From the IMG/VR virus record IMGVR_UViG_2740892230_000033: a stretch of DNA of 14,669 nucleotides. One strand, written 5' to 3'. Of the stretch, positions 11,372-13,444 are shown piece after piece. The DNA comes from a virus. Taxonomy: Duplodnaviria > Heunggongvirae > Uroviricota > Caudoviricetes. Made by a program: the position numbers and the translations under genes. The notes beneath the pieces are model-generated. The model was not told where the DNA came from. It did not search any database and saw only the letters and a program-made list of their open reading frames with translations. Every line of letters begins with the position of its first letter. The first letter of the stretch is position 1.

Positions 11372-11731
11372 ATGTTCCGTTGTCCGCTTTGTGGCGCATC
11401 TGCCCGTATCCGCACCAGTCGTCCTGAAAATGATTCAAACACCGTGCGGCAAAAGTATTACCAGTGTAACAACCTGGAATGCGGCGTATGCTTCTCAACA
11501 CTGGAAGCTTTCCATAAATTCACATCAAAACACACCTCCGGCGTTCACTCTTCAGAAGGTATCCCGTGGCATGAGCTGCCAGCTTCACACAGGGGAAACA
11601 ATCAGATGANNNNNNNNNNTACATCGAAACACGCCTCCGGCGTTCACTCATCAGAAGGTATCCCATGGCATGATCTGCCAGCTTCACACAGGGGAAACAA
11701 TCAGATGAGTTTGCCTTTACCTCAGAATTAA
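11372..11731 (+). CDS. ogr: Ogr-type zinc-finger late transcription activator; about 30 codons are duplicated around the N gap at 11610-11619 (de-duplicated length about 86 aa)
   Basis: MFRCPLCGASARIRTSR...YYQCNNLECGVCF has the Cys-x2-Cys ... Cys-x4-Cys arrangement and N-terminal similarity to P2 Ogr; SD AAGGGAGG upstream. Confidence 0.85.
   Translation: MFRCPLCGASARIRTSRPENDSNTVRQKYYQCNNLECGVCFSTLEAFHKFTSKHTSGVHSSEGIPWHELPASHRGNNQMXXXXTSKHASGVHSSEGIPWHDLPASHRGNNQMSLPLPQN
11610..11619. other. N10 scaffold gap; about 11521-11609 is repeated at about 11620-11708 with a few substitutions
   Basis: Direct comparison of flanks. Confidence 0.95.
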
Positions 11732-11922
11732 CAGGCAGAATTGCCGGAGTAACAAAAAAGCGATAGATTACGCGCGGGTGCCTTTCGGCTGATGGTCGGA
11801 GGGAATACCCGAAGGCCAGATGTGGAAAGGCCCCGGAAAACATTTCTGTTTAACCGAGGCCCTAACATATCTACCTTAAGCAAGTGATAGGTTAGCGCCT
11901 CTCCAACAAAGGAGCAAGCGCT

Positions 11923-12055
11923 ATGTCGCAAAAATCGCTTACGGCCATCACGTTCTGCGTGACGGTAATCCTCATCATCTGGATGCTACACGGTTCGCTG
12001 TGTGAAATACGGATGAGCTTCTGGGGAGCGGAGTTTGCGGCGTTCTTACAGTGTA
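11923..12055 (+). CDS. Hok/Gef-family type I toxin homolog, copy 1; the 3' end runs into the N gap at 12056
   Basis: MSQKSLTAITFCVTVILIIWMLHGSLCEIRMSFWGAEFAAFLQC: transmembrane segment followed by the LCE[IL]R ... E[FI]AAF signature of Hok proteins; SD AAGGAG 8 nt upstream. Confidence 0.65.
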
Positions 12056-12065
12056 NNNNNNNNNN
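12056..12065. other. N10 scaffold gap between the two hok-like copies; here the flanks are paralog-level diverged, not near-identical
   Basis: Direct comparison of flanks. Confidence 0.95.
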
Positions 12066-12120
12066 CTTCTTACCTTCGCAAGTAGAAGGTTAGCGCCTCT
12101 CCTCTCAGGAGACAAGCGTT

Positions 12121-12261
12121 ATGACGCAAATTCCGTTAAAAACCCTGTTACTTTGCATAACTGCGGTAGCGATAATCTGGATCCTCCACACATCACCGTG
12201 CGAGTTACGATTCAGGTTTGCTGGCACGGAAATTGCGGCATTCTTACTATGTAATAAGTAA
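12121..12261 (+). CDS. Hok/Gef-family type I toxin homolog, copy 2 (46 aa, complete)
   Basis: MTQIPLKTLLLCITAVAIIWILHTSPCELRFRFAGTEIAAFLLCNK; SD AGGAGA 8 nt upstream; the leader GGTTAGCGCCTCTCC is conserved with copy 1. Confidence 0.7.
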   Translation: MTQIPLKTLLLCITAVAIIWILHTSPCELRFRFAGTEIAAFLLCNK

Positions 12262-12270
12262 GATAACCGC

Positions 12271-12292
12271 GACGGGGGAGTAATCCCCCGTC
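12271..12292 (+). other. Perfect 9-bp hairpin with GUAA tetraloop immediately 3' of hok-like copy 2; possible mRNA stability or fold-back element
   Basis: GACGGGGGA GTAA TCCCCCGTC read directly from the sequence. Confidence 0.6.
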
Positions 12293-12349
12293 AATCGGTT
12301 GCTAAGGTTGGTCGAAACGGCACCCTATCTCACAGACATGAACAACAAA

Positions 12350-12381
12350 CCCGCAGCGTAAAAACTGCGGGTTTTCTTTTT
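12350..12381 (+). terminator. Rho-independent terminator after the hok-like genes
   Basis: Stem CCCGCAG / CTGCGGG with 8-nt loop, followed by TTTTCTTTTT. Confidence 0.8.
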
Positions 12382-12428
12382 GCTACCCTCACAAATGAGG
12401 GCACCATACATGAGCAATAGGCATAACA

Positions 12429-12466
12429 GATCGATGCAATAAATCCGATCGATAAAAACGATCGAT
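12429..12466 (+). promoter_or_regulatory. Cluster of three GATC (Dam) sites, each within a GATCGAT heptamer, spaced 18 and 13 bp, about 45-80 bp upstream of the com-like gene
   Basis: GATC at 12429, 12447 and 12460 read directly; resembles the Dam-sensing GATC triad of the phage Mu mom promoter region. Confidence 0.6.
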
Positions 12467-12510
12467 TTGTTATCATATCGGCAGCAGTAACCACACAAGA
12501 GGTGCCGCAA

Positions 12511-12708
12511 ATGACGCAAAATGTACGATGCAAAAATTGCAACAAACTACTTGCCCGCGCCTCATTTCACTACATTGAAATAAAATGTCCGCGCTGCAAA
12601 ACACTTAACCAGATAACGAGAGCCATCGAGCACCCCACACACATGAGGAGTTATGACCGTGGGGATCGCAATCCAGCACCAACCAGCACATACACCGGAA
12701 CACACTAA
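12511..12708 (+). CDS. com: Com-like zinc-finger translational activator (phage Mu Com homolog)
   Basis: MTQNVRCKNCNKLLARASFHYIEIKCPRCKTL...EHPT closely matches the Mu Com pattern RCKNCNKLL...HIEIRCPRCK...EHPT; SD AAGAGG 9 nt upstream of the ATG at 12511; the 3' end overlaps the start of the next gene. Confidence 0.75.
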   Translation: MTQNVRCKNCNKLLARASFHYIEIKCPRCKTLNQITRAIEHPTHMRSYDRGDRNPAPTSTYTGTH

Positions 12709-13444
12709 GGTTTATCAGACTGACAATGCCACGCTCTGTCGTGGGAATGCGCTGGAAATATTGCCGCTGATTGAGCCAGAAAGCATTGATGCCTTAATCA
12801 CTGACCCGCCTTACAGTTCGGGTGCGACACACAAGGCCGGACGCACCAACCAGGGCAGCCATGCAAAATATCTGAACGGCGAGAACCTTCACCGCTTTGA
12901 TGGGTTCGCGGGTGAAAACATGGACGCCCGTTCGTGGGCTTACTGGACACAATTATGGATGGCACAGGCACACCGCGCAGTCAGGCCGGGCGGTTATGCC
13001 CTGGTATTTACTGACTGGCGACAACTACCAGCTTTAACCGATGCGTTTCAGGCCAGTGGCTTTACATGGCGCGGCATCATTGCGTGGAACAAGGGGAGGG
13101 GGTCACGAACACCACATACCGGGTATTTCCGGCATCAGTGCGAATACATCGTCTGGGGCAGCAAAGGCCATTTAGATAAATCGCCTTCGGGACCGTTCGA
13201 CGGCTGCATGACGTTCCCGGTTATCCCGTCAAAGAAAATGCACCCGACCGGAAAACCAGAAGAACTAATGGTGGAACTGGTCAGGACTGTGAATAGTGGC
13301 GGGACAATCCTCGATCCTTTTATGTGGTCAGGGACAACGGGTGTGGCTGCACTGAAAGCAGGACGCAAATTTATTGGTATAGAAACCAGTGATCATTATT
13401 TTGATGTAGCAACACAACGGCTCAAAACGGCGATCGAACCATAA
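12653..13444 (+). CDS. Beta-class amino (N6-adenine or N4-cytosine) DNA methyltransferase; the start may be the GTG at 12659 (GAGGAG 8 nt upstream) rather than the ATG at 12653
   Basis: DPPY (motif IV) near the N-terminus and DPFMWSGTTG (motif I, AdoMet binding) near the C-terminus; this order is typical of the beta subgroup. Confidence 0.85.
   Translation: MTVGIAIQHQPAHTPEHTKVYQTDNATLCRGNALEILPLIEPESIDALITDPPYSSGATHKAGRTNQGSHAKYLNGENLHRFDGFAGENMDARSWAYWTQLWMAQAHRAVRPGGYALVFTDWRQLPALTDAFQASGFTWRGIIAWNKGRGSRTPHTGYFRHQCEYIVWGSKGHLDKSPSGPFDGCMTFPVIPSKKMHPTGKPEELMVELVRTVNSGGTILDPFMWSGTTGVAALKAGRKFIGIETSDHYFDVATQRLKTAIEP

Follow-up and report, generated by a model that had tools for sequence, protein, structure and literature searches.

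The window, by which we mean the whole 14,669-nt stretch of DNA analyzed here (IMG/VR record IMGVR_UViG_2740892230_000033, Caudoviricetes), carries two small Hok-family ORFs on the plus strand between ogr (from 11372) and the com-methyltransferase module (12502-13444). ORF 1, here called hok allele 1, runs from 11923 to 12055 and can be read for codons 1-44 before it is truncated by a run of ten N (12056-12065), one of eight identical N10 scaffold gaps in the window; ORF 2, hok allele 2, occupies 12121-12261 (46 aa) and is the copy that is physically contiguous with com, the methyltransferase, and flk. In profile searches, both ORFs exceed the gathering score of 22 for Pfam HOK_GEF (PF01848), at 30.3 and 33.8 bits, respectively, and both match PHROG family phrog_251, "MokW-like host killing" (E 2.5e-23 and 2.8e-13), in agreement with the two Hok-family ORFs claimed by the first-pass annotation. 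The Hok signature and membrane segment that it described are also present: both proteins fit the ~50-aa pattern of a hydrophobic N-terminal helix and a C..CE.R....E.AAF core, and alignment with R1 Hok finds C12, C27, E28, R30, E37, A39, A40, and F41 invariant. Likewise, the leaders that it had called similar and SD-bearing share a conserved AGGTTAGCGCCTC, with AAGGAG or CAGGAG as the SD. Judged from their sequences, both ORFs encode genuine Hok-family membrane toxins, their toxicity being predicted.

The two proteins are 48% identical, and their DNA aligns at 62-63% identity across 188 nt with no indels. Scores against NCBIfam HokA (NF007290), the best NCBIfam match, are 35.8 and 27.7 bits; because these fall far under the equivalog cut-off of 89, the gene is not an ortholog of any named chromosomal hok, although it belongs to the same Pfam family as E. 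coli K-12 hokA-E. Scores against the NCBIfam Hok subfamily (NF007279; 23.6 and 25.2 bits) are likewise far under the cut-off of 73, and the sole name that fits these scores is the generic "Hok/Gef family protein." In complete genomes, allele 1 is 46 aa at full length and ends in ...LQCKQ; its residues 1-44 are those of the E. coli UMNF18 hok ORF (annotated WP_000078920.1), while the allele 2 protein is identical to that of the E. coli 8479 hok ORF (annotated WP_032140709.1).

The hok transcript and its predicted fold

The predicted hok mRNA promoter lies on the plus strand at 11741-11769 (TTGCCG at 11741-46, a 17-nt spacer, and TAGATT at 11764-69) and would start transcription near 11776; six homologous loci show no variation in TAGATT or at the transcript start, and a sigma-70 consensus scan of 11650-12520 called no plus-strand hok promoter. 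The hok mRNA 5' leader (11776-11933, plus strand) occurs once and matches Rfam RF01794 over its full length at 47.9 bits (E 2.8e-8), which is below the gathering score of 59. RF01794 bears the name "sok antitoxin" and is modeled on the hok-sense strand, with the model end at the hok ATG; the R1-type control, an IncFII plasmid locus whose Hok is R1 Hok (L009, 232-403), scores 87.2 bits on the hok strand. Because the control shows the model to be hok-sense, the match in the window marks the hok mRNA leader, with Sok on the opposite strand, and we rejected it as evidence for Sok itself. Two further Rfam matches were seen in the window: one to Thr_leader at 12252-12381 (E 3.6), which we dismissed as chance, and one to IS009 at 2716-2914 (175.7 bits; gathering score 117), which lies inside the tail-fibre-assembly ORF at 2373-2951.

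Within the leader, a tac-like 5' end (11776-11797), a ucb-like box (11825-11836), and a GAGG box (11856-59) in the target hairpin can be placed, all on the plus strand. The single-copy mRNA of 408 nt, from +1 near 11776 to the terminator, has a minimum free energy of -168 kcal/mol (z -8.7), and in this fold mRNA nucleotides 1-22 pair with an fbi-like element complementary to the 5' end (12304-12325, plus strand), just before the terminator, giving a predicted tac/fbi closure. In this closed form the ucb-like box pairs with the GAGG box region (11853-11860), whereas the consensus fold of the six homologues includes an alternative tac/ucb helix that joins the 5' end to 11825-11836. RNAalifold on the six loci returned a covariation term of ~0, the leader being too conserved for covariation to prove the structure; the tac, fbi, and ucb pairs are invariant or show one-sided changes only, and compensatory changes are confined to the target hairpin and the 3' GNRA hairpin.

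The latter hairpin, in the hok 3' UTR on the plus strand, corresponds to the one noticed earlier immediately after copy 2; our scan places it at 12270-12293, with 10 pairs and a GUAA loop. All six loci keep it, and in the Stx-phage homologue two of its pairs have changed in a compensatory way (pairs 338-345 and 339-344). The strong terminator reported downstream was also recovered, as the intrinsic terminator of the hok mRNA at 12347-12381 (plus strand), formed by a hairpin at 12347-12374 and the T run that follows it.

A putative Sok RNA would lie on the minus strand at 11819-11882 (~60 nt), with an allele-specific single-stranded 5' tail, a conserved long hairpin, and then UUU. Its putative -10 (TAACCT, the reverse complement of 11889-94) and -35 (TTGCTC, the reverse complement of 11912-17; TTGTCT in allele 2) are assigned by homology with R1, since they share model columns with TTGCGC-17-TATCCT of the R1-type locus, which we take to be the Sok promoter. 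The hexamers, the 17-nt spacer, and the hairpin with UUU are kept in all six homologous loci, and the predicted fold energies range from -22 to -30 kcal/mol. The minus-strand search for Sok that the first-pass annotation had proposed thus gave a divided result: the conserved elements are there, but the sigma-70 scan of 11650-12520 called no minus-strand Sok promoter, and the promoters given for both strands rest on R1 homology and conservation, not on the scan.

The search for an overlapping mok-like frame, proposed alongside it, was similarly split between the alleles. In the allele 2 arrangement, the ATG at 11820 opens a 78-codon mok-like frame that overlaps hok (L002, 12700-12936), but in allele 1 the same frame, MWKGPGKHFCLTEALTYLP (11820-11879, plus strand; stop at 11877-79), closes after 19 codons; allele 1 and four other homologues all have 15-24 codons in this frame and a stop upstream of hok. 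The site equivalent to the R1 mok start holds no start codon, although the GAGG box is conserved, and searches of NCBIfam and PHROGs with the 78-aa mok-like product matched no family. [quoted passage not shown]

Scaffold gaps and the origin of the second copy

The N10 gaps in the window start at 980, 2960, 3415, 5308, 5832, 9336, 11610, and 12056. At all eight, the sequence that runs up to the gap recurs, in register but diverged, as the sequence that follows it. The length L of these arms lies between 89 and 188 bases; six of the arm pairs are 93-95% identical, one is 79% identical, and the pair at the hok gap is 62% identical. At seven of the eight, the first position of the arms is a mismatch and their last 34 nt, neither more nor fewer, are identical. 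This pattern suggests the signature of a k=35 assembly graph: such arms would result if, in a k=35 de Bruijn graph, one branch of a bubble had stayed with the contig upstream and the other with the contig downstream before the two contigs were joined. In the coordinates of phage P88 and of the E. coli 8479 chromosome, consecutive contigs overlap by the exact arm lengths, including 188 nt at hok. Random or synthetic mutation as a source of the gap duplicates was rejected, both hok arms being found base for base in natural complete genomes and the 34-nt tails fitting a k-mer graph. Because overlapping alternative sequence is present at every N10 gap, the whole prophage region appears to have been in the sample in at least two diverged versions; a pair of similar P2-like prophages is a documented assembly problem in E. 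coli (PMC3032704).

The first hok copy sits on a short contig, c8 (11620-12055, plus strand), which consists of a second version of the ogr 3' end, the common hok leader, and hok allele 1. This contig matches two sequences at 99.5% identity, phage P88 and the second of the P2-like prophages in UMNF18, and over its first 89 nt it repeats, at 93%, the sequence with which the preceding contig ends. The following contig, c9, opens at the base where it first departs from allele 1 and begins with the final 55 nt of the allele 2 leader (12066-12120, plus strand). Copy 1 has a full 5' leader without a stop codon or 3' UTR, and copy 2 has a full 3' UTR with a leader that extends only those 55 nt back to the gap; the elements of the 5' leader (promoter, tac, and Sok hairpin) and of the 3' UTR (fbi and terminator) occur once each in the window.

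When placed on complete genomes with a single-copy locus, the two 188-nt arms fall on the same coordinates. Each arm, at 188/188 identity, is found in many complete E. coli genomes as the only hok between ogr and the prophage end, the allele 1 arm in single-copy genes annotated "Hok/Gef family protein," and among 1,526 complete E. coli genomes with a match, not one has the arms adjacent. Among the best-matching complete genomes listed, the equivalent of 11620-12700 spans 882 nt with a single Hok/Gef gene, 198 nt (188 + 10) shorter than in the window, and joining the preceding contig, the common leader (11709-11867), and the contig that follows yields a sequence colinear with a single-copy reference. 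A four-way alignment places allele 2 of E. coli 8479 (identical) and allele 1 of phage Chuche at the same position behind the same leader, and in UMNF18 the two alleles belong to separate P2-like prophages, which lie 1.8 Mb from each other. Across 18 comparison loci from phages, E. coli genomes, a plasmid, and GTDB representatives, each has one Hok signature; two are seen in the window alone.

The scan of GTDB species representatives contributed nine loci, all with a single hok. Several of these (L010, L011, L014, and L016-L018) are enterobacterial-type hok loci, some with R1-identical Hok motifs, on short contigs labeled Planococcaceae, Vagococcus, Xanthomonas, Streptomyces, Ferruginibacter, and Oscillibacter; such hok contigs under unrelated taxa are probably contaminants and were set aside from later analysis.

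Taken from the sequence comparisons above, the tandem arrangement is very probably an assembly artifact in which one hok locus has been doubled (probability about 0.9). The two ORFs of the tandem pair claimed earlier do exist, but the pair itself has one leader, one 3' UTR, and arms that overlap in the reference. The argument that the copies are diverged paralogs and hence a real pair fails, the ORFs being alleles that are each found singly at the same position in complete genomes; by contrast, the concern voiced with that argument, that the second copy might be an assembly artifact, came true by the overlap in reference coordinates. Because c8 also holds a second version of the ogr 3' end, we assign it to a fragment of a second P88-like element and not to an insert between ogr and com, and the same duplication implies at least two elements in the sample. 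The source of this 436-nt contig would be a second P88-like element in the same sample, either another prophage or another strain. The identical hok leader of the two elements would have collapsed in the assembly graph, and the scaffolder would have placed both branches in series with 10 N between them. The resident toxin gene would then be allele 2 (12121-12261), in the prophage integrated beside flk, and c8 would continue into AGCAGTAAGG... and a different attachment site.

A real tandem pair would require that an allele 1 cassette had been inserted upstream of allele 2 and that the missing stop, 3' UTR, promoter, and leader all lie inside the gap. Several observations lend it some color: neither ORF is interrupted within its readable part, both score above the Pfam threshold, and the identical leader and 92%-identical 3' flank could mediate unequal recombination. 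The hok junction also differs from the other seven, since its arms share 4 identical terminal bases instead of 34; it is therefore not a simple bubble closure, and its N10 could in principle conceal sequence. This last feature has another reading, as the last 34 nt of c8 are preceded, like those at the other junctions, by a polymorphic base, here 12021, which varies among natural allele 1-like genes; this suggests that c8 stopped where the graph branched toward a further hok copy. Moreover, the edges of the hok repeat unit coincide with the gap edges, as at the seven junctions that are clear overlaps; a hok insertion leaves the duplicate ogr end on c8 unexplained; and a real pair requires ~300 nt of unseen sequence where the doubled-locus explanation requires none. 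With the arrangement lacking from every matching complete genome and from all 18 fetched loci, we consider a real pair very improbable.

The sample could also have contained two strains, through contamination or as a population, with a single P2-like prophage at flk in each of them, and the artifact would then not stem from one genome with at least two P2-like prophages. Bubbles of 5-7% divergence run along the entire 14.7-kb window, and allelic prophages in a mixed culture would give the same pattern; on the other hand, 2-4 copies of the locus are common in complete genomes, and the UMNF18 chromosome alone holds both alleles. Furthermore, the allele 1 locus of UMNF18 and P88 has no com-methyltransferase downstream, which fits a different insertion site. 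A strain mixture is unlikely in our estimate, and under either source the tandem pair is not real.

The practical value of these findings is a warning on the gap-flanking sequence of this scaffold. Because alternative versions of the sequence overlap at every N10 gap, one should discount whatever appears beside such a gap as a "duplicate," a "tandem pair," or a lengthened ORF; gap-adjacent ORFs are inflated, as for ogr, which reads 119 aa here against 86 aa.

Relation to known hok loci and possible function

With the artifact removed, a single type I toxin-antitoxin locus of the hok/sok type remains, as far as sequence tells; it belongs to the accessory end of a prophage that is P2-like (Xuanwuvirus/P88-like) and sits beside flk. 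The gene is already known, as "MokW-like host killing" in phages and as "Hok/Gef family protein" in RefSeq. In P88-like phages (Xuanwuvirus) the same gene lies at the same position directly downstream of ogr, with the same leader and 3' UTR, and is annotated "MokW-like host killing" in P88 (SF19_gp52), P88_4B11 (gp32), and phage Chuche (CDS0012); there is no substantive difference, except that the gene is single there and two copies appear only in the scaffold. Of the complete E. coli genomes that match it, which number more than 1,500, many also have it annotated.

The locus closely resembles hok/sok (parB) of R1. The two have in common the Pfam family, an mRNA of ~400 nt with (here predicted) tac/fbi closure and an alternative tac/ucb pairing, a GAGG box closed off within a stem-loop that is complementary to the (here putative) Sok hairpin, promoter-like antisense hexamers in the same leader-model columns, and the 3' order of post-stop hairpin, fbi, and terminator. 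They differ in the length of the toxin (52 aa for R1 Hok against 46 aa here, at ~33% identity), in the leader score (87.2 bits for the R1-type control against 47.9 bits here, below the Rfam gathering cut-off), in the mok start, where the R1 site has no start codon here and a long overlapping frame exists in allele 2 only, and in residence, R1 hok/sok being plasmid-borne and the present locus prophage-borne. A 46-aa homologue also occurs in Stx-converting and lambdoid phages (Lyz12581Vzw and ~100 records of Stx-converting phages), with a shared leader (83%), a core 81% identical to allele 1, and a common 3' hairpin. HokW of Sp5/933W, by comparison, has 51 aa and a lambdoid, not P2-like, context; HokW-SokW of Sp5 is an experimentally shown type I toxin-antitoxin system with a role in phage release (PMC8621323).

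By analogy with R1, for which the mechanism, including tac/fbi closure, has been reviewed (PMC9841398), the stable full-length hok mRNA would be inert, closed by tac-fbi pairing before the terminator. Slow 3' trimming would open the mRNA, and the alternative tac/ucb pairing would free the GAGG box. An abundant and unstable Sok of ~60 nt, made from the minus strand over the leader, would pair with the leader and lead to its decay; if Sok synthesis stopped, for example upon prophage loss, the 46-aa Hok would be made, the membrane would be depolarized, and the cell would be killed. We infer this sequence of events; what the analysis shows is the family membership, the single leader and 3' UTR, the predicted fold-back, and the conservation of the antisense elements.

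The main role of hok could also be other than prophage addiction: the locus may serve phage release at induction or abortive infection against other phages, and its place among accessory genes at the prophage end, beside the com-methyltransferase module, would suit such roles. The sequence gives nothing to discriminate between these roles, however, and a survey of prophage enrichment of hok did not find hok enriched near defence systems (bioRxiv 10.1101/2025.08.07.668861); a main role of this kind is possible, although we lean against it. According to the same survey, hok is encoded by 9.3% of Escherichia phages. The biological importance of the present locus is small, prophage-borne hok genes having already been catalogued.

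Alignment of the two allelic loci (L002 against L003; the equivalent of window 11750-12381) shows a 5' flank identical at 118/118 positions, a 188-nt core at 62.8%, and a 3' flank at 92%. The core comprises the Sok 5' tail, the Sok target loop, and the toxin ORF, and the flanks carry the common tac, ucb, Sok-hairpin, and fbi elements. These sharp mosaic boundaries around the core suggest cassette exchange between prophages. On a tentative reading that we rate as somewhat improbable, the alleles might be interchangeable specificity cassettes whose core is swapped by recombination, with allele 1 representing a class without a long mok that uses a 15-24 codon leader ORF inside the Sok target. If this were so, co-resident P2-like and lambdoid prophages would each keep a hok/sok whose Sok spares the others.

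Downstream of the hok terminator, three GATCGAT motifs fall within 38 nt (12429-12466), just upstream of the com start at 12502. GATC is scarce in the window (36 against ~57 expected), and the cluster recalls the Dam/OxyR control of the Mu com-mom operon.
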